From contig JAHDPL010000024.1 in NCBI GenBank assembly GCA_018434355.1, positions 128,522 to 192,521 on the forward strand: a DNA stretch of 64,000 nt. Reading direction: 5' to 3'. This document shows positions 5,076 through 30,916 of the stretch, in pieces (within the stretch, counting starts at the first letter, position 1; each line of letters starts with the position of its first letter). Source of the DNA: Sporomusaceae bacterium. Its GTDB lineage: Bacteria; Bacillota; Negativicutes; UBA1444. The notes under the pieces are model-generated. The model was not told where the DNA came from. It searched no databases and saw nothing but the letters and a program-made list of their open reading frames with translations. A program made the translations under genes and the position numbers.

Positions 5076-5113
5076 TTTGTAGAAAACAACAAAAATTCAC
5101 GCTTTTTTTCACA

Positions 5114-5143
5114 GCCTTCTACGAAGGCTTTTTTTATTTTTTA
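5114..5143 (+). terminator. Rho-independent terminator after PucR gene
   Basis: GCCTTCTACGAAGGC hairpin followed by T-run. Confidence 0.7.
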
Positions 5144-5230
5144 AACTAATATTAGTACTGTAAATGCGAAGGCATAATACGTAATGCTCGACAGCGAAAA
5201 AGAGTGATGAAAGTGAGGTGAAAACATCCA

Positions 5231-6052: not shown

Positions 6053-6091
6053 TTCGATACTGACAGAAATAGAAATAATAGGAGGGTCTTC

Positions 6092-7417: not shown

Positions 7418-7520
7418 TTCGGGGTTGTAAGTTGATTCGGTAATTTGTTTTGGCGCCCGGGCAACGAGGTTGTTCCAACCCATCGTAGTTCGGGCTGCCA
7501 ATGGAAGGGAAGTTGGGTTA

Positions 7521-10065: not shown

Positions 10066-10083
10066 CCCCAATAAGGGTTTTCG

Positions 10084-11172
10084 TCATATGGATATGCTAA
10101 GATGATTTCGACCGGCTATCCATTGATAGCTGCTGCTCTTGGTCAGTTTCTCGATTAAACGCAGTGACAGGTTATCGCTATCTGGCAGCAACAGAAATGG
10201 ATTTTGCTGCAATCCCGCGTAATTGAACAATAGTTGGAAATCGCCGGTTTTTTCGGAGTACTCAAGTGTCAGCTCGATTGCCGGATCGCCGGGAAATAGC
10301 GGCAATAACATTTGGCCGAGAACTTCTTCCACGATTAGCAAGATGTGGCTTACGGTTCGTTTATCTGCCGTATGGCGGGCGCAAAACAGCTCCAGGTTTG
10401 CCTGCAGTTTATAAAGGTCGAAATGGCGACTGACCACTTTTTCACAAAACTTGCGGATTCTTTGGATAAAGATCCGCGTTTTTTCTTTTTGCGGGTTATC
10501 GAAAATGTCGCTCGGTTTGCCTTCTTCATAGATGATTCCTTCGTCCATGTAAAACACGCGGCTTGACACATTTTTGGCGAAATCCATTTCATGTGTCACG
10601 ATCGCCATTGTCATGCCGTCTTTGGCCAACCTGCGAATTACGGACAGCACTTCGCTGACCATGGTGGGGTCGAGTGCCGAAGTCGGTTCGTCAAACAGGA
10701 TGATTTCCGGGTCCATTGCCAGACAACGGGCGATAGCGACCCGCTGTTTTTGGCCGCCGGAGAGTTCATCGGGAAACTGATGCAGCTTTTCTGATACTCC
10801 GACGGATTTCAGCAGTTCTATGGCTTTTGATTCCGCATCCTGGCGAGACTTCCCGAGCAGTATCATGGGTCCAAGCGTCAGGTTATCCAAGACTGTTAAG
10901 TGTGCAAACAGGTTGAAGGATTGAAAGACCATGCCCATTTTGCGCCGCAACTTCGGTTCATCCGTGCCTTTTTGCAGGATATTGACTCCGTCAATCACGA
11001 TGCTGCCGCCGGTAGGGCGTTCGAGCAGGTTCAGGCAACGCAGGAAAGTGCTTTTGCCGGTGCCGGACGGCCCGATGATCGAAATGACTTCGCCCTTGCG
11101 GATTTCGGCATTGATATCTTTTAAAACCCAGTGATCGCCAAAGCGTTTGGAGAGATTCTTCACGCTGATCAT
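10084..11172 (-). CDS. polar amino-acid ABC transporter ATP-binding protein with ~115-aa C-terminal extension of unknown function
   Basis: Walker [10 protein letters not shown], signature [13 protein letters not shown], Walker [12 protein letters not shown]; 362 aa versus ~240 aa for GlnQ-type ATPases. Confidence 0.8.
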
Positions 11173-14864: not shown

Positions 14865-16526
14865 ATGGAACCAGTGCAGGCGATTGTATTTGAACAGCTG
14901 TTTTGCCTGGAAGAATTGCAGCGACTGCAGGATCAATTTGCCGCAGCGACAGGAGTGGCTTCCATCATCACCAGACCTGATGGAACGCCGATTACCCGGC
15001 CAAGTAAATTTTGCCGGCTTTGCGTGGATATTATTCGAAAAACTCCAATCGGGCTGGCCAATTGTTGTCGCTCTGATGCGCAAATCGGCCGCTTGCGACT
15101 GGATGGGCCAACGGTGCAATTGTGTGAAAGCGGCGGACTTTGGGATGCCGGAGCCGGTATTTCCGTTAATGGCCAACACTTGGCGAACTGGCTGATTGGA
15201 CAGGTTCGCGATGAAAATCATACCGAAGCCCAGATCCGTGAATATGCCATTAAGATTGGAGCCGATGAAGCGAAAGTAGTAGAGGCTTTTTTTGAAATCC
15301 CATCCATGTCATTGGAACGGTTTCGTGATATAGCCAGTTTGCTATTTACGCTCAGTAGCCAACTTGCGGATACTGCCGCCAAAAAACTGCTGCAAAATCA
15401 GTTATTGAGCGCTAAAGAAGTGGCCGAAGAAAACGAAACCAGATTTAAAGCCCTGCATAATGCTTCGTTTGGCGGGATTTCAATCCATGATAAGGGGATA
15501 ATTCTTGACTGCAATCAAGGTCTAGCAGAAATATCCGGCTATTCAGTGGAAGAATTGGTTGGAATGAACGGTTTGTTGCTTATTGCCGAGCGCTCTCGCG
15601 AACTGGTCATGAAAAACATTCTGTCTGGATATGAAAAACCCTATGAAGCCTTCGGGGTAAGAAAAAATGGTGAAGAATTTCCCATGCGTTTAGAAGCTCG
15701 AGAGATTCCCTATAAAGGAAAACAGGTCAGGACTGTTGAATTTAGAGATATTACCGAACAAAAACAGGCAGAACAGATCATTGAAAACAAAAACAAAGAA
15801 CTGGAACAGATTGTTTATGTAGCGTCGCATGATTTGCGTTCACCGCTGGTTAATGTAGATGGCTATAGCCGTGAAATGCAGTATTTGGTGGAAGAACTCC
15901 GACTTGCACTTGGCGAAGAGCAAGCTGACAGTCCAAATTTGAATGCGGCGCGTGCTGTATTGCCGGAGATGACTGATGCTTTGCGACACGTCAGAAACAG
16001 CACTAGCCAAATGGACGCATTGCTGAAAGGATTGCTGCGGCTTTCTCGATTGGGGAGAGCGGCGCTTTGCTTGGAACATTTGAATATGAAAGACCTGCTC
16101 GGTCGCGTCGCATCGTCCTACGAGTTTCAGCTCCGATCCGCAGGGATTAGTATAGAAATTGACGGATTGCCTGATTGCCAGGGCGATGCGGTTCAGGTGG
16201 CGCAGATTTTCTCCAATTTAATCGGTAATGCGGTGAAATTTACTGACCCAAGCAGACCTGGCGTTATTCGGGTCAGCGGTATGACTGAGATGGGCCGCAG
16301 CATTTACTGTGTAGAGGACAATGGCATCGGAATAGCACCGGAACATCAGAATAATATATTTGAACTGTTTCATCGTTTGAATCCGGCCGATACCGAAGGG
16401 GAAGGGCTTGGACTCACCATTGTCAGGCAGGTGGTCGGGCGGTTGGGCGGTGATATTCGATTGGAGTCACAACTAGGAGTGGGGAGTCGGTTTTTTGTTG
16501 CATTGCCGGCCGCTCGCTCTAAGTGA
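14865..16526 (+). CDS. cytoplasmic sensor histidine kinase with PocR ligand-binding domain, PAS, HisKA, HATPase_c
   Basis: N-terminal PocR signature (ITRPDGTPITRP...CRLC...CCRSD...QLCESGGLWDAG), PAS (FGVRKNGEEFP), H-box VASHDLRSPL, G-boxes; no TM segments. Confidence 0.8.
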   Translation: MEPVQAIVFEQLFCLEELQRLQDQFAAATGVASIITRPDGTPITRPSKFCRLCVDIIRKTPIGLANCCRSDAQIGRLRLDGPTVQLCESGGLWDAGAGISVNGQHLANWLIGQVRDENHTEAQIREYAIKIGADEAKVVEAFFEIPSMSLERFRDIASLLFTLSSQLADTAAKKLLQNQLLSAKEVAEENETRFKALHNASFGGISIHDKGIILDCNQGLAEISGYSVEELVGMNGLLLIAERSRELVMKNILSGYEKPYEAFGVRKNGEEFPMRLEAREIPYKGKQVRTVEFRDITEQKQAEQIIENKNKELEQIVYVASHDLRSPLVNVDGYSREMQYLVEELRLALGEEQADSPNLNAARAVLPEMTDALRHVRNSTSQMDALLKGLLRLSRLGRAALCLEHLNMKDLLGRVASSYEFQLRSAGISIEIDGLPDCQGDAVQVAQIFSNLIGNAVKFTDPSRPGVIRVSGMTEMGRSIYCVEDNGIGIAPEHQNNIFELFHRLNPADTEGEGLGLTIVRQVVGRLGGDIRLESQLGVGSRFFVALPAARSK

Positions 16527-16565
16527 ATTATTATGAAGGAAAACTTCGTTCAAGGAGCTGAGCGC

Positions 16566-17012
16566 ATGAATCAAGATGTGGTCATTCTCGTTGCGGAAGA
16601 CGATGAAGGGCACGCTGGTCTGATCCGGAAAAATTTGGCCCGTGCAGGAATTGCAAATCAATTGTTGCATTTCAAAGATGGGCAGGCGATTGTAGATTTT
16701 TTGTTTCGATATGGCGAAGGTCCATATCGTCAGGACAACGTACCTTATGTTTTGTTGTTAGATATTCGGATGCCAAAACTTGATGGTACGGAAGTATTGA
16801 AGTTGCTCAAGGCGGATAAAGAATTGAGAAAAATACCGGTGATCATGATTACAACGACCGATGATCCGCGGGAAGTTGAAAAATGCCATGCAATTGGTTG
16901 TAGCAACTATATCACCAAACCGGTCGACTATGATGCGTTCGTCAACGCAATACGGCAACTGGGCTTGTTTTTGGCCGTTGTTCAGGTTCCAGCTGTACAC
17001 GGAGCTCATTAA
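16566..17012 (+). CDS. stand-alone receiver-domain response regulator (CheY-like)
   Basis: MNQDVVILVAEDDEGHAGLIRKNLARAG...LLLDIRMPKLDGTEVLK; AAGGAG RBS 8 nt upstream. Confidence 0.8.
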   Translation: MNQDVVILVAEDDEGHAGLIRKNLARAGIANQLLHFKDGQAIVDFLFRYGEGPYRQDNVPYVLLLDIRMPKLDGTEVLKLLKADKELRKIPVIMITTTDDPREVEKCHAIGCSNYITKPVDYDAFVNAIRQLGLFLAVVQVPAVHGAH

Positions 17013-17024
17013 AGGAGTCGACGC

Positions 17025-18959
17025 ATGGACGAGGTTGCACACCGGAACATGGCGGCAAATAAACGTGTTCTGGTAGTCGATGACGATGAAGGTTTGAGAA
17101 ATCTAATTGCACGAAGGCTGCGCAAGGCGGGCTTTGAAGTTTCGCTTGCCGTCAATGGAGCGGCTGCGGTCGAACTTGCATTGGTCGATCCTGGTCAATT
17201 GCTGGTGCTTGACCAAAAGCTTGTCGATATGACCGGGCGAGAAGTGATTCGTCTGCTAACGGAGCAGGGTTGCAAGGTTCATTTTGTCATGATGACTGGA
17301 CAGGGCGATGAGCGGCTGGCCGTGGAAATGATGAAACTTGGCGCAGCCGATTATCTGGTCAAGGGGCTTGACTTGCTTGACTTACTGCCTGCGACGCTGG
17401 ACCGTGTATTTCGTGCCATCGAAACAGAAAACCGATTACTGAAAGCAGAAAAAGAGCTGCAGGATAGCAGGGAACAATACCGGGCGCTGATTGAGCAGGC
17501 CTATGAAGCAGTGGTGCTGATTGATCCGGAAACTTGGCTGATTGTTGAAGTAAACCAACGGTTTAGCGAATGGTTTGGCTACAGGTTGCCGGCAGACGCT
17601 CCGCTTTCACGCAATGCTATTTTATCTGAGGCATCAGCCAATCAGGAATACTACGATGCAAAACTATTTGCCGACGGATTTTTGCCGGTGGCGCGCCGAA
17701 CTTTTCGCCATAAGGACGGCACATTGCTGTTTATGGAGCGGAGCGCCAAAATCATCAATCATCAATCGCGTCGTTTAGTCGTCGTCATCTATCGCAACAT
17801 TGCCGAACAGCTCCAACAGGAACAGGCGCGACTGCAGGATGCGGCGATTGCCCGCCGAATTCAAAGGGCGCAACTGTCTTGCCCGGATGAAACGGAATAT
17901 GTGTCGATCGAGACGGCATTTCTGCCCTGTGGGGATATCAGCGGAGATCTGTATCATCTGGAATGGCGAAATGACGGAAATTTGCTGCGCGGTTATCTGG
18001 TTGATGTGGCGGGGCATGGGTTGACAACGGCGCTATATACATCGACAATCAATATATTGTTGCATGAAGCTGCCGAATTGGATGCTTCACTCTCGGAACA
18101 GCTCGATTGGCTAAATCGACAAGTGGTCAGACATTTTTCTACCAGCGCCTACGTCGCTGCAATTGCATTTGAACTTGATCTGCAGATGGGGGAACTTCGG
18201 TACGCGAGTGCTGGAATCAATCGTTTCTGGGTGCGGATGGCTGCCCGGAAAGGAATGGTGGCGGTTTCCGGCCCATATCTCGGCAAAGAACCGTCTTGGC
18301 GCTATATGATGCAGCAATTGCCGATTGCAGCCGGTGATCACATTTGTTTTGCTACCGATGGCGTTGAAACCATACTGGCGGATCAGCCTCTATGCCAGGC
18401 ATGTGATGGAAGACAGATATCCGCGATGCTTTTGGCTCTACCGGAATGGACTGAAAAAACGCATGATACGACTGCCGTCTGTTTGCAGATTAAAGCGTTG
18501 CCGCACTCCCTGCAGGACGGTAAGTGGCCCAAAGTTTTGAAATTGAACGGGTTTGACGATTATCGACGCTTGAAAGGGCAAGTGGCAAAAATACTGGCTG
18601 ATGCAACCGATTTACCTCATTCCTTGCAGGAAGTTGCAGTGAATGAGGCTTTGGCTAATGCTATGGAATGCAGGGATGGCGTTCCCCGACAGCACCGAGC
18701 GAGAATCCGGTTCAACAAAATCGGCGCATGGTTGATTGTTCGCGTGCGAACCTCACGGATTGGATTCGCCGGAAATGCCGTTTTGCGTCGGTTGCGGGCA
18801 ATGCCTGACGAAATGTTTGCTTTTGGCGAGGATCAGGCGATGGGGCGGGGGATTCCTCTGATGTTAAGCCTATCACACAAAATGATGTATAACAGTGACG
18901 GTACAGAAGTACTGCTGGCCTGGAATATGAAACGACAGGAACTAAATAACAACAAGTGA
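17025..18959 (+). CDS. multidomain signalling protein: receiver - PAS - PP2C/SpoIIE phosphatase - HATPase_c (RsbW-like) domain
   Basis: REC (VLVVDDDEGLRNLIARRLRKAGFEV), PAS, PP2C motif (GDISGDLYHL...VDVAGHGLTTAL), C-terminal GHKL N-box (EVAVNEALANAMECRDG) and G2 (AMGRGIPLM). Confidence 0.75.
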   Translation: MDEVAHRNMAANKRVLVVDDDEGLRNLIARRLRKAGFEVSLAVNGAAAVELALVDPGQLLVLDQKLVDMTGREVIRLLTEQGCKVHFVMMTGQGDERLAVEMMKLGAADYLVKGLDLLDLLPATLDRVFRAIETENRLLKAEKELQDSREQYRALIEQAYEAVVLIDPETWLIVEVNQRFSEWFGYRLPADAPLSRNAILSEASANQEYYDAKLFADGFLPVARRTFRHKDGTLLFMERSAKIINHQSRRLVVVIYRNIAEQLQQEQARLQDAAIARRIQRAQLSCPDETEYVSIETAFLPCGDISGDLYHLEWRNDGNLLRGYLVDVAGHGLTTALYTSTINILLHEAAELDASLSEQLDWLNRQVVRHFSTSAYVAAIAFELDLQMGELRYASAGINRFWVRMAARKGMVAVSGPYLGKEPSWRYMMQQLPIAAGDHICFATDGVETILADQPLCQACDGRQISAMLLALPEWTEKTHDTTAVCLQIKALPHSLQDGKWPKVLKLNGFDDYRRLKGQVAKILADATDLPHSLQEVAVNEALANAMECRDGVPRQHRARIRFNKIGAWLIVRVRTSRIGFAGNAVLRRLRAMPDEMFAFGEDQAMGRGIPLMLSLSHKMMYNSDGTEVLLAWNMKRQELNNNK

Positions 18960-18966
18960 GGCAACG

Positions 18967-20142
18967 ATGGAGTGGGAAAATAAAACAGATAGTTCCGCCC
19001 GCTGGCGGGAAGATGCCGAAAAGGCATTGCTAAGGGGACAAATCGACGAGGCGTTTCGCAATATTGACAAGGCGATTGCCGCCAGCGGTCGCACGATCGA
19101 TTTGCTGATGAAGGCGGACCTGCTTTGGGCAGCCGGCAAGCATGAGCAATGCATCGAATATATCGAGAACAACATGGTCAGGTTTGAAGCCGATTTAACG
19201 GAGCGTGAGCGAAAAAGCCGATTGTTGCCATTGTTGCGCAAAGGCGCAGAGTATTTCTATAAAAAAGCCGATTCGCTGTATGAGGCAGGGCGTTATGCAG
19301 AATGCGCCGAGTTTGCCAAATTTGTTCTTACCGAGCATGCTAGTTTTTTGCAACAGAAAAAATATCGCGAATTATTTGAGTTTGCCTGGCAAAGTTCCAA
19401 TGACGAATTGCTGCGCAGCCTATATAAAAGTCGTGATTATGAGGGATGCGTCGATGCCGTCGATCATATCTTCGCTCAGGCGCGTCGTTTGACGACCTTT
19501 GGCCAGCGCAACCGCTATCGGAAATTGCGGGCGAAGGCGTATTTTCGCCAGGGTCGTTATGCAATCGGTCTGCTCGATTATTTTGCCGTGCCTGGCGTCT
19601 GGATAACATTGTTTGCAGTGATAATCCTTGTTTATGGTCTAAATATCGGTTATCAGATACTGGTGGGAAGTGGTTTCTTTAAACCGTCATCTGTCGTGAC
19701 GCAAAAAAATGAATCGCCGACCGCGACAACACCGTCTGAAGCTGTAAAAGTCGCGCCGACCAGACCGGCAGTCAGGCGGGCGGAAATTAAAAGCGTCAAA
19801 TTGTTTGAAGCCGATCGGGCGATTCCGCTGGTCGGGGCGCGGGTCTACCAAAATCAGTTCACTCGCCAAGCCCGGCGGATCTTTGTTGAAGTTCATTATC
19901 GCAATCTTAATTTCCGTAAGGCTGACGTATCGTTGCCGCTGATCATCCAGTACATCAGTCCGACCGGTGTTCTATTGCAGGAACTGACCACGACATCCAA
20001 CCCGAAAAAGGAATACGAATCGGCGATTACTTCCATGGGGTGGCGACCGGATGAAGATGCCGCCTGGCAACCAGGACGTTATACGGTCCGGGTGATATTG
20101 GATGGCGAACAGCTGCCGGACGTAAACTTTGAAGTGCGATGA
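18967..20142 (+). CDS. hypothetical bitopic membrane protein: cytoplasmic TPR-like N-domain, one TM helix, extracytoplasmic ~115-aa domain
   Basis: TM helix VWITLFAVIILVYGLNIGYQILV; C-terminal domain homologous to repeats of the secreted protein at 53873-54877. Confidence 0.5.
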   Translation: MEWENKTDSSARWREDAEKALLRGQIDEAFRNIDKAIAASGRTIDLLMKADLLWAAGKHEQCIEYIENNMVRFEADLTERERKSRLLPLLRKGAEYFYKKADSLYEAGRYAECAEFAKFVLTEHASFLQQKKYRELFEFAWQSSNDELLRSLYKSRDYEGCVDAVDHIFAQARRLTTFGQRNRYRKLRAKAYFRQGRYAIGLLDYFAVPGVWITLFAVIILVYGLNIGYQILVGSGFFKPSSVVTQKNESPTATTPSEAVKVAPTRPAVRRAEIKSVKLFEADRAIPLVGARVYQNQFTRQARRIFVEVHYRNLNFRKADVSLPLIIQYISPTGVLLQELTTTSNPKKEYESAITSMGWRPDEDAAWQPGRYTVRVILDGEQLPDVNFEVR

Positions 20143-20837
20143 GTGGAGCAGAACTGGCCTATTTGCGGCGGATCCCTGTATTTGAAGATTTGGCGCCGGA
20201 AGATTTGCAGCTGATTATTCGGGTTACTGCAGAACGGCGGATTGCTCGCGGTCAGGCAGTGTTTAGCGAAGGAGAGCCCGGCGAAGGATTTCACTATATT
20301 CGCAGCGGACGGGTCAAAATTATCAAACTGTCTGCTGATGGGCGGGAGCATATCCTGAACATCCTTGGTCCTGGCGATGTTTTTGCCGAAGTACTGTTGT
20401 TTAATGAAGCGCCGTATCCGGCTACTGCCATTGCTGTGGAAGATGCCGTGATCGGTGTCATTCGCAATCGTGACCTAGAAGCGCTATTGGTTGCTCAGCC
20501 ACGACTGGCGGTTCATGTCATACGGGTGATGAGCAAGAAGCTGTTGTACATCCAGTCCAAAGTAAAGTCGTTTGCATTGGCCGACAGTCAGGCGAAAGTC
20601 GCGCAAACCCTGGATTATTTACTGGGACGGTATGGGAACCCTACCGGCAATACGCGGGAAGTAACCCTGGAAATTAATCGCCAGGATCTTGCCAATATGG
20701 CTGGAACGACGCGAGAAACAGTAAGTCGTGTGTTCAGGACGTTAAAGGATGATGGAGTGATTGAGGATGAAGAACGACGAATCGTAGTAAGGGATCCAGT
20801 TCGTTTGCGGACATATTTCGAACAATCGGTAGTTTAA
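20139..20837 (+). CDS. Crp-family (cNMP-binding) transcriptional regulator
   Basis: cNMP-binding domain plus C-terminal HTH with recognition helix RETVSR (CRP-like R-E...R); no FNR Cys cluster; start overlaps upstream gene stop (ATGA). Confidence 0.8.
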   Translation: MSGAELAYLRRIPVFEDLAPEDLQLIIRVTAERRIARGQAVFSEGEPGEGFHYIRSGRVKIIKLSADGREHILNILGPGDVFAEVLLFNEAPYPATAIAVEDAVIGVIRNRDLEALLVAQPRLAVHVIRVMSKKLLYIQSKVKSFALADSQAKVAQTLDYLLGRYGNPTGNTREVTLEINRQDLANMAGTTRETVSRVFRTLKDDGVIEDEERRIVVRDPVRLRTYFEQSVV

Positions 20838-21403: not shown

Positions 21404-22375
21404 ATGTTGCCCAAAGGCGCCAACCTACAAAAAATTCGTAATGGAAATAAAACGTATGCGGTTACCCCGCATCTGCCAGGCGGGTTTGTAAAACCGGAAG
21501 TCTTGGAAAAGTATGCGCAAGTAGCACGAAAATATGAAGGAACGCTAAAATTAACCTCAGCCCAACGGATCATGATCACCAACTTGAAAGCGGAAGACAT
21601 CGAAGCGATCTGGGCTGAGCTGGGGATGCAACCGGCGATGGGATTTGCCAATTGTGTACGTAGCGTCAAAGTTTGTCCGGGGATTGCTTTCTGCAAACGA
21701 GGTAAGCAGGACAGCGTGAAACTGGGACTAGAGCTGGATCGGCGATATATCAAGAAAGAGATGCCTTCGCGCATGAAATTCGGCGTGTCGGGTTGTCCGA
21801 ACTCTTGTTCGGAATCTGTCATCAAGGATGTCGGAGTCATTGGCACTGAAGCTGGATGGGATGTATATGTGGGAGGCAGCGCCGGGTCGCATCCACGATT
21901 GGCCGATAAATTGGCTGAAAGCCTTGATTATTACGACACATTGCGTCTTGTTGATATCGTAGTGCGTTATTATCAGAAATATGCCGACATCGAACGGGTC
22001 GGACAGTTTATCGACCGGATTGGCTTTGCAAAGTTCCAGGCCGATGTACTAGCTGAGTTTAACGGAACTGGGGCGGTGGAAAGCACGGTGACCGCATCGA
22101 CGGTTTCGTCGGAAAAATTGACACCGATGCCGGGGGCTTTGACAGAGGGGACATTGGTGGTTGGCGATCCGATAACGCAAGGCAGCGTAATCGCTGACAT
22201 CATTCGGATCTATCCGCAGACGATTCCGGTATTGCGTGGGTTTGGCATGGGTTGTCTCGGTTGCCCGTCCGCCACGGGGGAACCGTTGGAAAAGGCGGCA
22301 GGGATTCATGGTTTGGCGGTTGAGGAACTGATAGTCGCACTAAATGAAGTCGTATTGAGGGGGAAATTAACATGA
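21404..22375 (+). CDS. nitrite/sulfite reductase-like (ferredoxin-like half domain + 4Fe-4S/siroheme domain) fused to C-terminal DUF1858 redox-disulfide domain
   Basis: C-X6-C...C-X3-C cluster (CVRSVKVCPGIAFC, SGCPNSC); C-terminal ~80 aa with GFGMGCLGCP motif typical of DUF1858. Confidence 0.6.
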   Translation: MLPKGANLQKIRNGNKTYAVTPHLPGGFVKPEVLEKYAQVARKYEGTLKLTSAQRIMITNLKAEDIEAIWAELGMQPAMGFANCVRSVKVCPGIAFCKRGKQDSVKLGLELDRRYIKKEMPSRMKFGVSGCPNSCSESVIKDVGVIGTEAGWDVYVGGSAGSHPRLADKLAESLDYYDTLRLVDIVVRYYQKYADIERVGQFIDRIGFAKFQADVLAEFNGTGAVESTVTASTVSSEKLTPMPGALTEGTLVVGDPITQGSVIADIIRIYPQTIPVLRGFGMGCLGCPSATGEPLEKAAGIHGLAVEELIVALNEVVLRGKLT

Positions 22376-23156: not shown

Positions 23157-23921
23157 GTGGATAAAATGCTGGGTGGAGTAACCGGGAAAGTTGCGATTGT
23201 CACCGGCGCAACCCGCGGCATTGGGCAGGCGATTGCGCAAGCTTACGCGGCAGCTGGAATCAAAGTGGCGGTTGTCAGTCGTAGTGCCGTGGATTGTGAA
23301 CAGGCGGCCCGGTCAATCAACGAAACCGGCGGAGCTGCGATGGCGGCGCACTGCGACGTGACGCAGGTGGCTGCGTTCAGAAAAGTGGTCGAGCAAGTGG
23401 TCGAATACTGGGGCAGGTTGGACATCATGGTCAACAACGCCGGGACGGCGATTACCCGTAAGGCGATCGACCTGTCGGAAGAGGAGTGGGACCGGGTCGT
23501 GGACCTGGACCTGAAGAGCGTTTTCTTTTGCGCCCAGTCGGCTGCGCGGGTGATGATTCCCCAACAGAGCGGCAAGATTATCAACGTCGCATCGATTCTT
23601 GGTTTGGTTGGCGCGAACGGCTTGATTCCTTATTGCGCGGCCAAGGGAGGCGTCGTGAACCTGTCACGGGCGCTGGCCAGTGAATGGGCCCGTTATGGTA
23701 TTCAAGTAAATTCTTTGTGTCCGGGTTATGTCATCACAGATATTAATCGCGATAAATTGAGCGATGAAAAAACGCAGGCTGCTTTGTTAACAAAAACACC
23801 GGCTGGTCGCTTAGGTCAGGTGGGGGACATGACAGGGGCGGCATTGTTTCTTGCTTCGCCGGCATCCGACTATATGACCGGTCAATGTCTGACCGTGGAC
23901 GGAGGTTGGACTGCAATCTGA
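23157..23921 (+). CDS. SDR-family oxidoreductase
   Basis: GKVAIVTGATRGIGQAIA Rossmann motif, NNAG, Y...K catalytic pattern; GTG 10 nt after AAGGAG. Confidence 0.8.
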   Translation: MDKMLGGVTGKVAIVTGATRGIGQAIAQAYAAAGIKVAVVSRSAVDCEQAARSINETGGAAMAAHCDVTQVAAFRKVVEQVVEYWGRLDIMVNNAGTAITRKAIDLSEEEWDRVVDLDLKSVFFCAQSAARVMIPQQSGKIINVASILGLVGANGLIPYCAAKGGVVNLSRALASEWARYGIQVNSLCPGYVITDINRDKLSDEKTQAALLTKTPAGRLGQVGDMTGAALFLASPASDYMTGQCLTVDGGWTAI

Positions 23922-23969
23922 TTTTTAAAGGGATATTTGTGACGGCATTTATCTTGAGGAGGGGTGTTT

Positions 23970-25421
23970 GTGAAAACTGCGCAACAGTACATCGACAGTC
24001 TGCGTCAGCGAAAAGTAAAGGTTTATTTGAAAGGACAGTTGTTGGACTCGCAAACGTTGGTTGACCATCCGTTTATTCGTGGCCATGTAGCTTCTGCCGC
24101 ATTGACGTTCGAGCTGGCGCATGAACCGGAAAGCGAAGACCTGATGACGGCGGTTTCCCACTTGAGCGGAAACAGGATCAACCGTTTCACCCACATCCAT
24201 CAGAGTGTTGAAGATTTGCTGAAAAAAGTGAAAATGTTGCGGATGATTTCGCAAAAAACGGGAACATGTTACCAGCGTTGCGTCGGATTTGATGCGTTGA
24301 ATTCACTTTATACCGTTACTTATGAGATGGATCAAGCGTTGAAAACAGATTATCACCAACGATTTAAAAGATTCCTGGCCCATGTGCAAGAAAACGATCT
24401 AATGGTTGCAGGAGCGATGACCGACACCAAGGGGGACCGATCGTTAAAACCGAGTCAACAACCCGACTCCGACATGTATGTGCATGTGGTCGAACGCAAT
24501 GATAAAGGGGTGGTGATTCGCGGCGCCAAAGCCCACATGACAGGCATGGTGAATTCACATGAGATGCTGATTATGCCAACAGCCGCCCTTACGCCGGAGG
24601 ACAAGGATTATGCGATTTCCTGCGCTTTGCCGGTTGATGCGCCGGGGGTGTTTCATGTGTTCGGCCGTCAGACCAATGATGATCGTAAAATGGAAGGCGA
24701 GATCGATCAGGGGAATGCGCAGTATGGAATTGTCGGCGGCGAGTGCCTGACGGTTCTGGATAATGTATTTGTGCCGTGGGAACGGGTGTTCATGGATGGT
24801 GAGACCGATTTTGCCGGACTGCTGGTCGAGCGGTTCGCCTGTTATCACCGCCAAAATTATGGCGGCTGCAAGGGTGGCGTTTCAGACATCGTCATCGGTG
24901 CGGCAGCAACCATGGCCGACTATGGCGGTTATGGCAAAGCAGCCCATGTCAAAGAAAAAATCAATGAAATGATTCATTTGACAGAAACATTGTATGCCTG
25001 TTCGATTGCCTGTTCGGCCGAAGGCCACCAGACAGCGTCCGGCGCATATTTTGTCGATCCCTTGCTGGCCAATGTCGGCAAACATAATGTGACCAGGTTG
25101 ATTTATGACATTGATCGCCTGGCTCAGGATATTGGCGGCGGTTTAACGGCGACCCTGCCTTCGGAAGGCGACCTGCGCCATCCGGAAATCGGACCGTATA
25201 TCGAAAAGTATTTTAAGGGAGTAGCTGGTGTAAGTACGGAAAACCGGCTGAGGATGGCCCGCCTGATTGAAAATATGACCGGCGGAACTGCCTTGGTGGA
25301 AAGCATGCATGGCGCCGGGTCACCGCAAGCGCAGAAAGTAATGTATTCAAAACTGGCAAATTTGGAGCATAAAAAACGCTGCGCCAAAAAAATTGCCGGC
25401 TGTAAATCGGAAACAGAGTAG
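23970..25421 (+). CDS. abfD: 4-hydroxybutyryl-CoA dehydratase / vinylacetyl-CoA delta-isomerase
   Basis: ~484 aa; cluster-ligand pattern C-x3-C (TGTCYQRC) and H-x6-C (HRQNYGGC) matching AbfD; GAGGAGGGG RBS, GTG start. Confidence 0.75.
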   Translation: MKTAQQYIDSLRQRKVKVYLKGQLLDSQTLVDHPFIRGHVASAALTFELAHEPESEDLMTAVSHLSGNRINRFTHIHQSVEDLLKKVKMLRMISQKTGTCYQRCVGFDALNSLYTVTYEMDQALKTDYHQRFKRFLAHVQENDLMVAGAMTDTKGDRSLKPSQQPDSDMYVHVVERNDKGVVIRGAKAHMTGMVNSHEMLIMPTAALTPEDKDYAISCALPVDAPGVFHVFGRQTNDDRKMEGEIDQGNAQYGIVGGECLTVLDNVFVPWERVFMDGETDFAGLLVERFACYHRQNYGGCKGGVSDIVIGAAATMADYGGYGKAAHVKEKINEMIHLTETLYACSIACSAEGHQTASGAYFVDPLLANVGKHNVTRLIYDIDRLAQDIGGGLTATLPSEGDLRHPEIGPYIEKYFKGVAGVSTENRLRMARLIENMTGGTALVESMHGAGSPQAQKVMYSKLANLEHKKRCAKKIAGCKSETE

Positions 25422-25447
25422 CGTAAAGAAAGGCAAGGGATCAAACA

Positions 25448-25900
25448 ATGGAAAATAATCGGGTGGAACAGGCGGTTGCTTTATTTACAGGAGGGATGGC
25501 CTGTTCGCAGGCGATTTTGGCAACGTACGGGCCGCTTTTCGGGTTTGACCGAGATGAAGCGATTCGTATTGCACGTGGATTTGGCGGCGGCATGGGACGT
25601 CTGTCGGAGACATGCGGTGCGGTGACCGGCGCTTTTATGGCGATTAGTCTGAAGTTTGACGGAACTGATAAACAGACCAAGGAGGATAATTATGCACTGA
25701 TGCAGGAGTTCGCCCGCCGGTTCAAGTCGAAGCATCATTCGCTGAATTGCACGCAGTTGCTTGACTGTGACCTTGGCAAACCGGAAGATCAGGCAAAATT
25801 CCGTGAACTGGGCAGAATGCAGTCGCATTGCATTTGTTATGTGCGAGAAGCAGCGCAGCATCTTGAAGAATTGTTGGAACTGGAGAACAAGCCGGTTTGA
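25448..25900 (+). CDS. C_GCAxxG_C_C-family protein
   Basis: 150 aa; GGMACSQAIL and ETCGAVTGAFMA motifs characteristic of the family. Confidence 0.65.
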   Translation: MENNRVEQAVALFTGGMACSQAILATYGPLFGFDRDEAIRIARGFGGGMGRLSETCGAVTGAFMAISLKFDGTDKQTKEDNYALMQEFARRFKSKHHSLNCTQLLDCDLGKPEDQAKFRELGRMQSHCICYVREAAQHLEELLELENKPV

Positions 25901-25918
25901 TGTTGAACGGGGGAAACG

Positions 25919-27457
25919 ATGAGCGAAAGTAAAGACTATTATGCCGTAGCAGATGCTTTTTCCCATTTGCTTGCCCGTCTGCAGGCCGGCGATTCTTTTG
26001 ACGATCCGGTCGAGCGCCGACAACTGATTGAGGGTTTGCTTGCTGCACTAAATTGTTTGCAGGAAACGCATGAATACGATTTCCGTGAAATCGGCGATCA
26101 TTTGTATGACGGGATTTATATCGCCGACGGCCAGGGCAAGACGATGTACGTCAACAAGGCTTATACCCGGATCACCGGGATTCAGGCGCAGGAAGTCGTC
26201 GGTCGCTATGTTTCTGAACTGATGGCAGACGGACTTTATAAAAACGCCGTTACGCCGGAGGTCATCCGGACAAAAAAACAAGTTAATGCGATGGCGGAAA
26301 GCTTGCGCAATGGAATCAAAATGTTGATCACCGGAAATCCGATCTTTGATCCGGCCGGCAATGTGAAGAAAGTGGTTGTGATTGATCGGGAAATGTCCGA
26401 TTTGATGGAAATGAAGGCTGAACTGGACGCATCGCAGGAAAAAATGAAAGCGGTGGAAGAAGACAAGGACAAAAAGAAAGAAGAAATCGAACATTTGCGC
26501 CGCCTGCATTTCAGCAAGACGTTGATTGCCCAAAGCCCGGCGATGGAAAGGGTGATTGCGGCAATCAACCAGATTGCCCGCTTGGATGTCACAGTGTTGA
26601 TTACCGGCGAAACCGGTGTGGGAAAGGAAGTCGTGGCCAATGCCATCCGGGTCAACAGTGCCCGGGAGAAAGGTCCGTTCATAAAAGTCAACTGCGCGGC
26701 GATCCCCGCTACGTTGTTGGAAGCAGAACTGTTTGGTTATGAAAAAGGGGCGTTTACCGGTGCAACATCCGGCGGCAAGATGGGATTGTTCGAACTGGCT
26801 GACAAGGGGACATTGCTGCTGGATGAAATCGGTGAAATGTCGCTGGAATTGCAGGCGAAATTACTGCGGGTGATCCAGCACAAGGAAGTGAATCGTATCG
26901 GCGGTTCCAAGCCGATTCAGACTGATGTGCGGATTTTGTCGGCGACGCATTGTGAACTTAAAGAGTTGGTGCGGCAGAATAAATTTCGTGAAGACTTGTA
27001 TTATCGGCTGAATGTTTTTCCGATTTACATTCCGCCGCTGCGGGAACGACCGGAAGACGTCGCGTTATTGGTCCGACATTTCTTGTCGACGTTCAATACG
27101 AAGTACGGAAAATCTGTCTTGATTGATAGTGGAGGCATGAATACACTGCAGCGCTATTCCTGGCCCGGCAATGTGCGGGAATTGCAAAACATCGTAGAAC
27201 GCATCGTGATTATTTCGGAACCTCATGTCGTGGTAGGCGGTCCGCGTATCGCTGGTCTGTTGGATATGGACCCGTTTGTATCCGATAACAACGAGGAGGC
27301 AATGGGGCTATATGAGTTGGTGGAAGCGACGGAGCGGCGCATGATCGAAAAAGCGCTGCGGCTCGGCGGCAGCACCCGCAAAGCGGCAGCGATGCTGAAA
27401 ATCGACCAGTCGACTATCGTGAAAAAAGCAAAGAAACTCGGTATCCTCGTGAAGTGA
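25919..27457 (+). CDS. sigma-54-dependent transcriptional activator (PAS sensor - AAA+ sigma54 interaction - Fis HTH)
   Basis: Walker [15 protein letters not shown] motif (EKGAFTGA), C-terminal HTH. Confidence 0.9.
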
Positions 27458-27471
27458 TGACAAACGTCATC
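27456..27471 (+). promoter_or_regulatory. enhancer-like palindrome GATGACAAACGTCATC (putative activator-binding site 1)
   Basis: 16-bp perfect inverted repeat ~200 nt upstream of the sigma-54 promoter; a half-site GATGACAAA recurs at ~27479. Confidence 0.5.
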
Positions 27472-27498
27472 TAATGCGATGACAAATAGAATCGAACG

Positions 27499-27529
27499 GA
27501 AACGCCTGTAATCGGCGTTTCTTTTTTTA
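27499..27529 (+). terminator. Rho-independent terminator after activator gene
   Basis: GAAACGCC tgtaatc GGCGTTTC + T8. Confidence 0.75.
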
Positions 27530-27542
27530 TTTTGTTATATTT

Positions 27543-27558
27543 GATGACCTTTGTCATC
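27543..27558 (+). promoter_or_regulatory. enhancer-like palindrome GATGACCTTTGTCATC (putative activator-binding site 2)
   Basis: Second copy of the GATGAC-N4-GTCATC inverted repeat, ~110 nt upstream of the -24 element. Confidence 0.5.
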
Positions 27559-27654
27559 GGTTGTGATTGCGTGAACTTGCAAAGGTTAATGGAAAATCAA
27601 TGAAACACAATGAAATTAGGGGTTTTAACCCATTTTTGCATGTCGAGATTTGGT

Positions 27655-27670
27655 TGGCACGAATGTTGCA
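27655..27670 (+). promoter_or_regulatory. sigma-54 (-24/-12) promoter TGGCAC-N5-TTGCA
   Basis: TGGCACgaatgTTGCA, exact consensus with GG-N10-GC spacing, 78 nt upstream of the kce-like ATG. Confidence 0.8.
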
Positions 27671-27732
27671 ATGATTGGCAATTGACTGATAAAGGACAAC
27701 GTGTCCGGAGAAAGACAGGGAGGCAGAAAAAC

Positions 27733-28554
27733 ATGAACAAGGTAATTATCACGGTGGCGCCGACCGGCGCCTGGCCAACCAAGGAGAACAATCCCAATGT
27801 TCCGATGACCCCGAAAGAAATTGCCAACGACGTATATGAGTGCTGGCAAGCCGGCGCTGGTATCGCTCATCTGCATATGCGGGACGATGCAGGAAAAGGA
27901 ACCATGAGCAAGGATAAATTCCGCGAAACGGTGGAATTGATTCGTGAAAAATGCGATATCGTGTTGAATCTCACGACATCCGGCGATCTGAATGCGACTG
28001 ATGAGACCCGCATGGCTCATTTGATCGAACTGAAACCGGAACTTGCATCCTATGACGCCGGATCGATGAACTGGATGCATACCAGTCTTTTTCTCAACCC
28101 GCCGCAATTTTTGGAAAAGCTCGGCAAAACGATGGCTGAGAACGGTGTAAAGCCGGAAATCGAAGTATTTGACGCCGGTATGTTCTATAACGCGGAATAC
28201 TACATGAAAAAAGGCGTCATCAGCAGTCCCGGTCACTATCAATTTGTCCTGGGCGCAGCCGGCGGTACCGCAGCGACGGTGGAGAATCTGGTGTATCTGA
28301 AGAGCTTGCTGCCAAAAGAGGCGACCTGGTCGGCACTGGGAATCGGTGCAGGGCATATTCCCATCCTGTTTGCTACGATTGCGCTGGGTGGACATGTACG
28401 GGTCGGGATGGAAGATAATGTGGTCTATGCGAAAAACCGTCTGGCAAAATCCAACGCCGAGTTTGTTGAGCGGGCAGCTCGATTGATTCGGGAAGCGAAC
28501 AAAGAGGTTGCATCTCCTAGTGATGCCCGGGAAATCTTGAAACTGAAACGATAG
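27733..28554 (+). CDS. BKACE-family beta-keto acid cleavage enzyme (Kce-like, DUF849), paralog 2
   Basis: MNKVIITVAPTGAWPTKENNPNVPMTPKEIA...AHLHMRD; ORF track start 27610 is an upstream extension across the promoter. Confidence 0.8.
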   Translation: MNKVIITVAPTGAWPTKENNPNVPMTPKEIANDVYECWQAGAGIAHLHMRDDAGKGTMSKDKFRETVELIREKCDIVLNLTTSGDLNATDETRMAHLIELKPELASYDAGSMNWMHTSLFLNPPQFLEKLGKTMAENGVKPEIEVFDAGMFYNAEYYMKKGVISSPGHYQFVLGAAGGTAATVENLVYLKSLLPKEATWSALGIGAGHIPILFATIALGGHVRVGMEDNVVYAKNRLAKSNAEFVERAARLIREANKEVASPSDAREILKLKR

Positions 28555-28565
28555 GAGGTGAGAAG

Positions 28566-29510
28566 ATGATCAAAAAAATTGGCGTAATCGGCGCTGGTAC
28601 GATGGGACACGGCATTGCGGAAAGCTTTGCAATGTTCGGGTATAATGTTAATCTGTACGATACCAATGCAGCACAACTGGAAAAGGCGCTGAATGAAATC
28701 AAGGCCGAACAGCAACTGTTGGTGGAAGAAGCCTTCATTTCAGCAGAAAAAGCAGCCGCAACAATGGAAAACATTTCGATCCATACAGACTTGCAGACTG
28801 CGGTTAAAGATCGCGACTATGTAATCGAAGCAGCGCCGGAAAACATGGAATTGAAACAAAATCTGTTCAAACAATTGGATGGTTTTTGTCCGGCGCATAC
28901 CATTTTGGCTAGCAATACATCCAGTTTGTCGCTGGAACCGATGATGGCCCTGGTAAGCGAAGCGCGAAAGCAGCGGATGATGGTTTGCCACTGGTATAAT
29001 CCGGGTCATTTGATGCCGTTGGCAGAGTTGTCCTTCTTTGGCAACATGCCGGCTGATATTTACCAACAGGTGGCGGACCTGTATGCATCAATCAATAAAC
29101 AAACCGTCAAAGTCCTCAAAGATGTGCCGGGGCTGGTAGCCAACCGGATACAACAAGGGGTGGCCCGAGAGGCGTTTTCTATTATCGAACAGGGGATAGC
29201 CGATCCGATCGATGTAGATAAAGCATTGAAGTTCGGCCCGGCTTTTCGCTATGCGACAACCGGTCAACTGGAAGTCGCCGATTTTGGCGGACTTGACATT
29301 TGGTGCATCGTCGGTGACAACCTGCTGCCGGCCATGGATAATTCGACCCAGGCCAACAACCTGTTGCGCCAAAAAGTTGCCGAAGGGAAACTGGGAATAA
29401 AAAGCGGCGAGGGTTTTTTCCGCTATGATGCAGAACAACTGCCTGCCATTCGAAAACGGTTTGCCCAGAAACTGATCCATCAGTTAAAAGCATCAGAATA
29501 CTATAAGTGA
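28566..29510 (+). CDS. 3-hydroxyacyl-CoA dehydrogenase-family protein (likely beta-hydroxy acid dehydrogenase partner of BKACE)
   Basis: MIKKIGVIGAGTMGHGIAESFA NAD-binding fold; 314 aa. Confidence 0.75.
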   Translation: MIKKIGVIGAGTMGHGIAESFAMFGYNVNLYDTNAAQLEKALNEIKAEQQLLVEEAFISAEKAAATMENISIHTDLQTAVKDRDYVIEAAPENMELKQNLFKQLDGFCPAHTILASNTSSLSLEPMMALVSEARKQRMMVCHWYNPGHLMPLAELSFFGNMPADIYQQVADLYASINKQTVKVLKDVPGLVANRIQQGVAREAFSIIEQGIADPIDVDKALKFGPAFRYATTGQLEVADFGGLDIWCIVGDNLLPAMDNSTQANNLLRQKVAEGKLGIKSGEGFFRYDAEQLPAIRKRFAQKLIHQLKASEYYK

Positions 29511-29523
29511 GGGGAGTGTCAAT

Positions 29524-30864
29524 ATGCTTTGGAGATTGTCAAAAAAGTTCCAGTTTGCTGCTGACCGGATCATTCCCGACTCGTTCGTTTTTTGCGTAAT
29601 TCTGACTTTGCTGGCTTTTATTGCCAGTCTTGCAATGACGCCAGCAGGCCCGGAAAAGATCGTTCTTGGTTGGTATAATGGTCTTTGGACTATGATCGCT
29701 TTTGCATTCCAGATGTCGTTCATGGTGGTCTGCTGCGGTGCGGCTGCAAAAGCCCCTCTGGTGGAAAAGTTCCTGTCCAGGGCAGCGCAAATCCCCAAGA
29801 CTCCGTCAGCTGCCATGGTGCTTTTACTGGTGTTTGGTTTTGTATCAAGCTTGATCAACTGGGCTTTCTCGACGATTTTGACACCGATCTTTGCGATGCA
29901 GCTTTCCCGTAACGTAAAAGGGTTGCACTTCCCGTTGATGATTGCCGCCGGATACACTACGATGGTGCTGGGGCAGACCTGGTGCCCGAGTGCTTCGTTA
30001 TATGCACTTGTCGCAACAAAAGGTCATTTTCTGGAAAAAAGTATCGGCACATTTTCTCAGGACGTAACGGTCTACAATCCTGTGAACACGGTATTGTTCT
30101 TTATCTTGGTTGCAACAGTCATTTTCCTCGGCGTGTTCACACGGCCGCCGGAAAATGAAGTCATCATGTACAATCCAGGGGTGGAAGAAAAAGTTGTCGC
30201 TGTACAAGAAGAAGCTGATGTGACATTGGCTGACAAAATGAATGGTAGCAGAATCCTGATGCTGATCATCGGCGCGGCCGGACTGTTTGTCATTGGAGAC
30301 AGCATATTGAAAAAAGGCATCATGAAATCGCTGGACTTCAACTTTGTCATCTTCCTGTTCCTGACGCTCAACGCATTTCTCTACAACACGCCGAAAAAAT
30401 TCGTCGATGCATTTAAGGACACGATGCGTTCTGCTTCTGAAGTCATGTTGCAGTTCCCGTTCTATGGCGGCATCATGGGAATGATGATGGCGTCCGGTCT
30501 TGGTAAAGTGTTGGCCGACTTCCTCATTCGTATCGCCAGTCAGGATACGATTTACATGTACTCGTTCCTTTCAGCAGCCTTTGTCAATCTGTTCATTCCT
30601 TCCCAAGGCGGTCAATGGATTGTCCAAGGTCCGATCCTGATGGAGGCAGGCAAAGCGATGAATGCGAATTTGCCGCTGATTATGAACGCTTTTGTAGCAG
30701 GAGACGAAGTAACAAACTTGTTGCAACCGTTATACGTAATTCCCGCATTGGCGCTTGTTGGCATGAAACTGAAGGAAGTATGGGGTTTCATGGCCTTTAT
30801 CTGCACTTTCTGGTTGGTGATTGCTTCTGTCGGTTTTGTTGTACTACCTAAAATTCTGATGTAA
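29524..30864 (+). CDS. atoE: AtoE-family short-chain fatty acid transporter, paralog 2
   Basis: 446 aa, collinear similarity with 6092-7417 product (e.g. IPSGGGQW/IPSQGGQW, GPIMMQA/GPILMEA). Confidence 0.75.
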   Translation: MLWRLSKKFQFAADRIIPDSFVFCVILTLLAFIASLAMTPAGPEKIVLGWYNGLWTMIAFAFQMSFMVVCCGAAAKAPLVEKFLSRAAQIPKTPSAAMVLLLVFGFVSSLINWAFSTILTPIFAMQLSRNVKGLHFPLMIAAGYTTMVLGQTWCPSASLYALVATKGHFLEKSIGTFSQDVTVYNPVNTVLFFILVATVIFLGVFTRPPENEVIMYNPGVEEKVVAVQEEADVTLADKMNGSRILMLIIGAAGLFVIGDSILKKGIMKSLDFNFVIFLFLTLNAFLYNTPKKFVDAFKDTMRSASEVMLQFPFYGGIMGMMMASGLGKVLADFLIRIASQDTIYMYSFLSAAFVNLFIPSQGGQWIVQGPILMEAGKAMNANLPLIMNAFVAGDEVTNLLQPLYVIPALALVGMKLKEVWGFMAFICTFWLVIASVGFVVLPKILM

Positions 30865-30892
30865 TCCTATCTCAGTCAGTTTCATCATCCCG

Positions 30893-30916
30893 CCTCCCGC
30901 AAGGGAGGCTTTTTTC
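30893..30916 (+). terminator. Rho-independent terminator
   Basis: GCCTCCCGCAAGGGAGGC + T6. Confidence 0.85.

Follow-up and report, generated by a model that had tools for sequence, protein, structure and literature searches.

A putative transporter-coupled variant of the lower phloroglucinol pathway, beside an apparently separate AbfD unit, in a Sporomusaceae bacterium

Introduction

In the anaerobic breakdown of flavonoids and tannins, phloroglucinol is the intermediate on which the routes converge. Its anaerobic degradation in Clostridium scatologenes proceeds through four enzymes (Zhou et al. 2023; PMC10470551): phloroglucinol reductase (PGR) of the SDR family, dihydrophloroglucinol cyclohydrolase (DPGC) of the cyclase family, (S)-3-hydroxy-5-oxohexanoate dehydrogenase (TfD) of the HADH (3-hydroxyacyl-CoA dehydrogenase) family and triacetate acetoacetate-lyase (TAL) of the BKACE family. 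The pathway ends in acetoacetate and acetoacetyl-CoA and does not require a 4-hydroxybutyryl-CoA step (PMC10470551). The known gene cluster already serves as a predictor of polyphenol degraders in metagenomes from gut and peat. Here we analyse a 64 kb stretch of DNA (the window) from a Sporomusaceae bacterium (assembly GCA_018434355.1, contig JAHDPL010000024.1) and, within it, a locus of seven genes (23157-30864) that encodes a BKACE protein (BKACE2), an HADH-family dehydrogenase, an AtoE-family transporter (AtoE2), a sigma-54 activator, the 4-hydroxybutyryl-CoA dehydratase AbfD, an SDR oxidoreductase and a C_GCAxxG_C_C protein.

The locus resembles the C. scatologenes cluster in that BKACE2 falls in the TAL orthogroup, the adjacent HADH lacks the CoA contacts and atoDA plus thiolase would finish the conversion. 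It differs in having AtoE instead of the cyclohydrolase and, apparently, of the reductase, an HADH of another lineage and a sigma-54 PAS activator. Orthologues of BKACE2, of the HADH and of the activator occur in a Sporomusa cluster of this pathway type, and those of BKACE2 and the HADH in a Bradyrhizobium one. Kce, the BKACE of lysine fermentation, shares with BKACE2 the TIM barrel, the zinc ligands H46 and H48, the glutamate of the GMEDN motif and the (for BKACE2, predicted) product acetoacetate, and is its best PDB match (E 2e-61). However, Glu14 of Kce binds the 5-amino group, whereas BKACE2 has Trp, and no lysine-fermentation genes lie near BKACE2. The E. coli atoSC/atoDAEB system is likewise a sigma-54-activated short-chain acid operon with AtoE, and there too atoDA and thiolase act downstream in catabolism; the window instead has a one-component PAS activator and carries BKACE and a dehydrogenase in the operon, with atoDA and thiolase in a PucR-type-regulated module. 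HADH and BKACE proteins were reportedly paired by Bastard et al. 2014 as carnitine dehydrogenase and dehydrocarnitine cleavage enzyme. In that pair, as predicted here, the HADH oxidises a free beta-hydroxy acid to the beta-keto acid that BKACE cleaves with acetyl-CoA, but the aromatic pocket residue of BKACE2 is ill suited to a quaternary amine. The window AbfD can be aligned along its whole length with that of Clostridium aminobutyricum (PDB 1u8v) and keeps the [4Fe-4S] ligands; unlike its counterpart, the window unit has no abfT/abfH-type partner, its conserved partner is an SDR, and relatives add MFS transporters, a family III CoA-transferase and a thiolase.

Results

BKACE2 belongs to the TAL orthogroup

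The locus is best read as two juxtaposed, independent units that are neighbours by chance in one uncultured Negativicutes species. The first, with predicted limits at 25919 and 30864, would be a sigma-54 regulon made up of an enhancer-binding protein (EBP) gene and a BKACE2-HADH-AtoE2 operon. The second, predicted to span 23157-25900, comprises SDR, AbfD and C_GCAxxG_C_C and has no demonstrable connection to the first. All seven genes lie on the + strand and each was confirmed by Pfam, so that the gene list of the initial annotation is right. The features of the first unit are as follows.

25919-27457, + strand: sigma-54 EBP; PAS domain 54-155, AAA+ domain 202-369, HTH_50 462-509
27456-27471, no strand: first candidate activator palindrome, GATGACAAACGTCATC, about 193 nt 5' of the -24 element
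27498-27522, + strand: intrinsic-terminator-like hairpin 3' of the EBP gene, 9-pair stem followed by a T run, TTTTTTTATTT
27543-27558, no strand: second candidate activator palindrome, GATGACCTTTGTCATC, about 106 nt 5' of the -24 element
27655-27670, + strand: predicted sigma-54 promoter (-24/-12), TGGCACGAATGTTGCA, perfect TGGCAC-N5-TTGCA
27733-28554 (longest open reading frame from 27610), + strand: BKACE2, predicted TAL type, full-length PF05853
28566-29510, + strand: HADH-family, TfD-like (S)-3-hydroxycarboxylate dehydrogenase (putative), 3HCDH_N and 3HCDH domains
29524-30864, + strand: AtoE2, AtoE-family short-chain carboxylate transporter (SCFA_trans), PF02667 over residues 1-440, E 4e-93
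30892-30909, + strand: intrinsic-terminator-like hairpin closing the BKACE2-HADH-AtoE2 operon, GCCTCCCGCAAGGGAGGC then TTTTTT

BKACE2 covers positions 1-274 of the PF05853 profile, a full-length BKACE domain. The 120 matches listed in a homology search from a clostridial BKACE orthologue included no C. scatologenes entry; the C. scatologenes TAL (CsTAL, A0A0E3M5J5) was compared through eight tryptic peptides, 138 residues in all, from the proteomics supplement of PMC10470551. BKACE2 is identical at 96 of these residues (70%), including TIITVAPTGAWPK, against 41% for both Kce and BKACE1, the other BKACE protein of the window. The published TAL signature is the replacement of Kce Glu14 by a tryptophan, Trp16 in CsTAL (PMC10470551). 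BKACE2 has Trp14 (TGAWP) at this position, and among 81 orthogroup members it is Trp in 56 and Phe in 25. The zinc-binding His46 and His48, together with E227 and D228, are invariant in all 81, and the other columns examined are invariant or nearly so. BKACE2 is 77-81% identical to the BKACE proteins of the Bradyrhizobium and Sporomusa phloroglucinol clusters, and its best 120 listed homologues (76-99% identity) are spread over Negativicutes, Clostridia, Alpha-, Beta-, Gamma- and Deltaproteobacteria and Spirochaetes. Because of the identity to the CsTAL peptides, Trp14 and the orthologues within phloroglucinol clusters, we assign BKACE2 to the TAL type, predicted to convert triacetate and acetyl-CoA to acetoacetate and acetoacetyl-CoA.

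Kce itself was considered and rejected: BKACE2 carries Trp14, scores 315 bits against the NF052387 cut-off of 382, and the window holds no kam, kdd or kal genes. No NCBIfam equivalog model reaches its cut-off for SDR, BKACE2, HADH, AtoE2 or EBP, and proteins of confirmed phloroglucinol clusters miss the NCBIfam cut-offs as well.

The HADH-family protein is TfD-like

An alignment to Hbd of C. acetobutylicum and C. butyricum shows that Ser (NTSS), His (HWYNP) and Asn (VANR), the catalytic residues, are retained in the HADH-like protein. The CoA contacts are gone: K56 is replaced by F, and N221 by A with an insert of three residues. Loss of the Lys56 and Asn221 contacts is the argument made for TfD acting on the free acid (PMC10470551). 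The best PDB match, 4om8, is an enzyme of a non-CoA substrate. The protein is 70-72% identical to the HADHs of Sporomusa phloroglucinol clusters (72% to that of S. malonica) and 58-61% identical to the Bradyrhizobium ones. On these motifs and on the Sporomusa and Bradyrhizobium cluster context, the protein is assigned to the TfD type. The suggestion in the initial annotation that it oxidises a free beta-hydroxy acid, and is not an acyl-CoA enzyme, thus agrees with the lost K56/N221 contacts and the kept catalytic residues, and would hold on this evidence. Carnitine dehydrogenase with dehydrocarnitine cleavage was rejected as an identity for the pair, the HADH scoring 101-118 bits where the cut-offs are 414-592.

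Predicted sigma-54 control of the BKACE2 operon

The longest open reading frame of BKACE2 starts at 27610, and its Pfam domain begins only at residue 44 of that frame. The gene itself begins with the ATG at 27733, which follows a GGGAGG ribosome-binding site; this start gives a product of 273 aa and matches both the gene callers and the homologues. With the start corrected from 27610 to 27733, the sigma-54 promoter therefore lies 63 nt upstream of BKACE2 and no longer within the gene. Automatic longest-frame calling would mask the sigma-54 promoter here (27610-27732).

An initial promoter scan that allowed one mismatch was at chance level, with one site found where 3.3 were expected. In an exact-match scan, TGGCAC-N5-TTGCA occurs once in 64 kb, against an expectation of 0.13. 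In nearly all orthologous loci with an activator gene directly before BKACE, a sigma-54 promoter that departs from the consensus at no more than two positions lies 32-77 nt 5' of BKACE. We accept the promoter because the exact-match scan and this conservation across loci settle what the one-mismatch scan left doubtful. Perfect GATGAC-N4-GTCATC palindromes occur twice in the window (27456 and 27543; 0 expected), and related TGAC-N4-GTCA sites are present in three other loci (L002-L004); the two palindromes are candidate activator sites.

The EBP possesses Walker A and GAFTGA motifs and an N-terminal PAS sensor, and has no receiver domain. The GAFTGA-bearing AAA+ domain of the EBP, the -24/-12 promoter and the palindromes 5' of it together predict, at the sequence level, an EBP-dependent regulon. 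The control of BKACE2-HADH-AtoE2 by sigma-54 and its activator, proposed earlier, is thus borne out as a prediction by a promoter conserved across orthologous loci. In its sensor region the EBP shares 64-67% identity with its counterparts in the Sporomusa phloroglucinol clusters and 60-79% with those of the transporter-type loci described below. Since this similarity is equal for both locus types, a common effector is suggested.

Orthologous BKACE loci come in several types

Genes within 10 kb of an orthologous BKACE (73-99% identity) were compared across 80 genome loci. The core seen in the window, an HADH of the same lineage (lineage A) with an AtoE-family transporter, recurs in 37 of them, 33 of which also have an orthologous EBP; none of these 37 transporter-type loci contains a cyclase. 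A DPGC-type cyclase, mostly with a PGR-like SDR, occurs in 12 loci, and a second cyclase family, with no dehydrogenase, in 14 (nine with an MFS transporter, seven of these nine also with a TetR regulator). In three, AtoE is accompanied by a PanE-type reductase in the place of the HADH. The atoDA genes are present in 19 of the 80 loci and thiolase in 21. A tblastn search of the 64-kb window with the cyclases from the 12 and the 14 loci found no cyclase homologue (E <= 1e-3).

TAL orthologues stand inside PGR-DPGC-TfD-TAL clusters in Bradyrhizobium (L032, L040-42, L071), in Sporomusa (L008-10, L016) and in two further loci (L056, L080). The Bradyrhizobium archetypum locus L032 reads cyclase, SDR, HADH (58%), BKACE (77-79%), DAPG hydrolase. 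In Sporomusa malonica (L010), cyclase, SDR, cupin, atoAD and EBP (65%) are divergent from thiolase, BKACE (81%) and HADH (72%), and the cluster adjoins pyrogallol transhydroxylase. Both organisms figure among the DPGC homologues in the supplement of PMC10470551, and the S. malonica entry of that list and the L010 cyclase are equal in length (311 aa). Between L010 (3369-6867) and L011 (4247-6900), both from Sporomusaceae, gene order is collinear except that L011 has AtoE for cyclase-PGR-cupin. The difference resembles a clean module swap.

In the BKACE tree the context types are interleaved within taxa, and the tree follows taxonomy rather than context. Because of this interleaving, and because the columns examined are almost all invariant, the orthogroup fits one isofunctional enzyme that would be fed by differing upstream modules.

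Further arrangements were seen among these loci. In Alphaproteobacteria metagenome-assembled genomes (MAGs; L015 at 7337-10816, L022, L028) the order is AtoE, PanE/ApbA-family reductase, BKACE, with a non-homologous dehydrogenase standing in for HADH. Leminorella grimontii (L072, 6977-13348) has a TetR gene next to a cyclase-family gene (PF04199, 257-280 aa), MFS, BKACE, thiolase, atoD and atoA; the arrangement, with BKACE 74-79% identical and neither reductase nor HADH, is also found in L070, L074, L081, L058, L036, L068, L069 and L029. It suggests that a cyclic precursor, for example a lactone or triketone tautomer, is hydrolysed straight to the beta-keto acid, and it appears to be undescribed. 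In a Clostridium sp. MAG (L038, 9079-9991), about 900 nt between a PGR-like SDR and BKACE hold no open reading frame of at least 60 aa and no N bases. This gap occupies the position of the cyclase in other clusters and might reflect either gene decay or faulty assembly. In two Bacillota/Negativicutes MAGs (L021 at about 7090, L026 at about 7068), a second and divergent paralogue of BKACE, with 35-36% identity to BKACE2, lies immediately 5' of the EBP gene on the other strand.

The AbfD unit

The second unit lies directly 5' of the EBP gene.

23157-23921, + strand: SDR oxidoreductase, Pfam adh_short E 2e-61, partner of AbfD
23964-25421 (start 23970 according to the gene callers), + strand: AbfD, 4-hydroxybutyryl-CoA dehydratase/vinylacetyl-CoA isomerase, HpaB_N and HpaB domains
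25448-25900, + strand: C_GCAxxG_C_C putative redox protein, PF09719 E 1.5e-33

The identity of AbfD, previously called from its C-x3-C and H-x6-C ligands, is secure: the protein matches PDB 1u8v with E 1e-169 over residues 4-481 and keeps all four [4Fe-4S] ligands, C102/C106 (Cys-x3-Cys) and H295/C302 (His-x6-Cys). The proposed link of AbfD to BKACE is not. Comparison of relatives, which had been called for to see whether abfD accompanies BKACE, HADH and AtoE, found neither AbfD nor C_GCAxxG_C_C within 10 kb in any of the 80 BKACE loci. Conversely, one of 47 metagenomic loci with AbfD relatives carries the BKACE module, and this locus (L106) is a contig of the same species. In L084 (AbfD 90% and SDR 77% identical) the SDR-AbfD pair is followed by an oppositely oriented urocanase, with no BKACE module. 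An SDR 46-48% identical to that of the window is present in L107 and L108. The latter (Ga0316232_1000307, 2522-12178; AbfD 79%) reads sigma-54 EBP', MFS, SDR, MFS, AbfD, family III CoA-transferase, thiolase, and AbfD of L097-L101 is directly preceded by another, different EBP (about 40% identity). AbfD units therefore appear to possess sigma-54 control of their own; a clostridial sigma-54 regulon with abfD, that of XanR, has been reported (PMC6615313). C_GCAxxG_C_C occurs beside AbfD or EBP only in the window species (L083, L106). The SDR-AbfD pair is therefore conserved independently of the BKACE module, with C_GCAxxG_C_C as a species-specific addition.

Upstream of the SDR gene there is a terminator-like element, with neither a sigma-54 promoter nor an activator palindrome. 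We judge the AbfD unit to be separate because of (i) the zero co-occurrence among the BKACE loci; (ii) its own SDR-AbfD context; (iii) the terminator and separate promoter that stand between it and BKACE2. The unit probably serves 4-hydroxybutyrate-type metabolism, in which AbfD would give crotonyl-CoA. The window SDR is 34-38% identical to the PGRs, which share just 39-44% among themselves, and 77% identical to the AbfD-coupled SDR of L084. No PGR structure was found for classifying it; among solved structures it best matches generic enzymes of the gluconate 5-dehydrogenase and FabG types, and it may act as an oxidoreductase of 3-hydroxyacyl-CoA or of a semialdehyde.

Discussion

We propose that the first unit is a transporter-coupled lower branch of the phloroglucinol pathway, in which a C6 3-hydroxy acid is imported and then cleaved, and that the AbfD unit is unrelated to it. 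We hold this to be the likeliest reading, with moderate confidence. Its enzyme identities rest on sequence and context, from which we infer substrate, import and effector. The acid, most likely (S)-3-hydroxy-5-oxohexanoate, would enter through AtoE2. The TfD-like HADH would oxidise it, as the free acid, to 3,5-dioxohexanoate (triacetate). BKACE2 would then cleave triacetate with acetyl-CoA, the acetyl group being transferred, to acetoacetate and acetoacetyl-CoA. Both products could be turned into acetyl-CoA by atoDA and thiolase, which are encoded 18 kb upstream (7470-10065) in the PucR/BKACE1 module. The PAS activator, bound to the two palindromes, would switch the operon on through sigma-54.

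Since AtoE stands where the ring-opening enzymes would be, the C6 hydroxy acid most likely comes from outside the cell and is not made from phloroglucinol within it. Import is supported by the 37 of 80 loci that combine HADH of lineage A with AtoE and have no cyclase, and by L011, in which AtoE takes the place of cyclase-PGR-cupin in L010. More tentatively, EBP-TAL-TfD-AtoE may be a system for uptake and cleavage of C6 acids from polyphenol ring fission, (S)-3-hydroxy-5-oxohexanoate or triacetate, released by other members of the community, with the PAS activator sensing the C6 acid. This would amount to cross-feeding in fermenters, phototrophs and spirochaetes that are unable to open the ring, a role we consider conceivable but somewhat less probable than not.

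Several points weigh against this proposal. The assayed TfD of C. scatologenes (CsTfD, A0A0E3GQA2) belongs to the other HADH lineage (B): its peptides are 51% identical to the window HADH and 73% identical to the HADH of L038, and the two lineages share about 36% overall identity, as judged with L038 as proxy. BKACE2 scores 223 bits against a cut-off of 430 for NCBIfam NF053538 (3,5-dioxohexanoate:acetyl-CoA acetone transferase); the BKACE of the S. malonica phloroglucinol cluster is also below it, at 221 bits, and the model evidently stands for another lineage of about 310 aa. The EBP gene begins 18 nt past C_GCAxxG_C_C, and co-transcription with the AbfD unit and a regulatory link are possible. 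No report was found that the environment offers free 3-hydroxy-5-oxohexanoate. AtoE-family transporters are, to our knowledge, poorly defined in their substrate specificity. Finally, our view covers 64 kb of the genome, and a reductase and cyclohydrolase could be encoded elsewhere, as in Propionivibrio dicarboxylicus, which has a transporter-type locus (L027) and a DPGC homologue at another site.

The last point leads to the most serious alternative, that the organism has the full phloroglucinol pathway with PGR and DPGC outside the window, the locus being a split-off lower operon whose AtoE moves acetoacetate or butyrate. Beside P. dicarboxylicus and the partial view of the genome, it draws on the EBP sensor, which is as near to the Sporomusa phloroglucinol EBPs (64-67%) as to those of transporter-type loci, so that the effector could be phloroglucinol. 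We nevertheless regard a split pathway as rather unlikely: hosts of transporter-type loci in six genera or species (Geosporobacter, Sedimentibacter, C. homopropionicum, Youngiibacter, Anaerospora and Pelosinus) are absent from the 524-entry DPGC list of PMC10470551, the exchange of AtoE for cyclase-PGR-cupin in L011 is position for position, and the 37 transporter-type loci are uniformly free of a nearby cyclase. The imported acid might also be another C5-C8 (S)-3-hydroxy acid, for example 3-hydroxyvalerate or 3-hydroxyhexanoate, which would yield acetoacetate with propionyl-CoA or butyryl-CoA. An aromatic residue 14 implies a neutral or hydrophobic distal group and not specifically an acetonyl group, the HADH lineage has never been assayed, and such products would need no cluster-specific enzymes. 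Yet a change of specificity is unlikely in a BKACE that is at least 73% identical across contexts, confirmed phloroglucinol clusters included, with near-invariant columns and a tree that follows taxonomy; moreover, its frequent partners are atoDA and thiolase only, exactly those that fit acetoacetate plus acetoacetyl-CoA. A different acid is thus improbable, more so than a split pathway.

Two further explanations have, in our view, very little chance of being correct. The initial annotation combined SDR, AbfD, C_GCAxxG_C_C, BKACE2, HADH and AtoE2 in one new pathway, which might, for example, cleave 6-hydroxy-3-oxohexanoate. The chemistry is formally possible, all genes are on one strand with short gaps, and the EBP gene follows C_GCAxxG_C_C closely, but comparative genomics contradicts it on both sides, through the BKACE loci that lack AbfD and C_GCAxxG_C_C and through the AbfD loci, of which L106 alone has the module. 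In addition, the SDR-AbfD context is conserved separately with MFS transporters, family III CoA-transferase, thiolase and a different EBP, and the units are divided by a terminator and a separate sigma-54 promoter, with neither palindrome nor sigma-54 promoter 5' of SDR. Equally remote is an ato-like module that takes up or uses (S)-3-hydroxybutyrate or acetoacetate. CsTfD is weakly active on (S)-3-hydroxybutyrate and acetoacetate (PMC10470551), AtoE under sigma-54 control is reminiscent of E. coli atoSC/atoDAEB, and a clostridial sigma-54 regulon atoE-hbd-cotX, that of AhcR, has been described (PMC6615313). However, the activity of CsTfD on acetoacetate is 0.02% of that on triacetate (PMC10470551), and a BKACE acting on acetoacetate and acetyl-CoA would, to judge from the Kce mechanism, merely regenerate its own substrates, whereas BKACE2 opens the operon and its orthologue is central in every locus compared.

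An undescribed pathway with a crotonyl/4-hydroxybutyryl-CoA-type intermediate, as first suggested for this locus, gives way to the match of BKACE2 and HADH with TAL and TfD of PMC10470551. As a lead, the locus concerns a variant of a pathway already published, not a new 4-hydroxybutyryl-CoA-linked one. No description of the transporter-coupled variant was found in the literature searched, and neither the NetSyn BKACE preprint nor PMC6615313 contains this module. As far as the searched literature shows, coupling of the lower phloroglucinol pathway to a transporter would be a widespread and undescribed variant. In 37 of the 80 loci sampled, the TAL-type enzyme is paired with a carboxylate transporter and not with ring-opening enzymes. 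If this pairing means import, TAL and TfD hits alone would overcount phloroglucinol degraders, and the C6 acid that true degraders release may sustain a second guild. The module also represents a compact sigma-54 switch, whose PAS sensor probably detects a small molecule.

Other features of the window

The other BKACE module of the window, module A (3459-10065), consists of a PucR-family regulator, BKACE1, AtoE1, atoD, atoA and thiolase, and has no dehydrogenase. BKACE1 is 41% identical both to TAL and to Kce, has Asn at the position of Kce Glu14 and is below every NCBIfam cut-off. The presence of two BKACE/AtoE modules had been thought unusual, but two BKACE modules each are found in Anaerospora (L029, L033), in MAG CTSoil_080 (L013, L059) and in MAG CA_67 (L015, L024).

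Between the two modules, a signalling cluster at 14865-20142 encodes a PocR-sensor histidine kinase, a stand-alone receiver, a receiver-PAS-SpoIIE phosphatase-HATPase protein and a 391-aa open reading frame with no Pfam match. It is followed by a Crp/Fnr regulator (20139-20837), upstream of a small CC_Se_fam open reading frame (PF28096). The latter lies in the segment 20941-22980 and is followed by an NIR_SIR/DUF1858 protein (21404-22375) and an overlapping 202-aa open reading frame that has no Pfam match.

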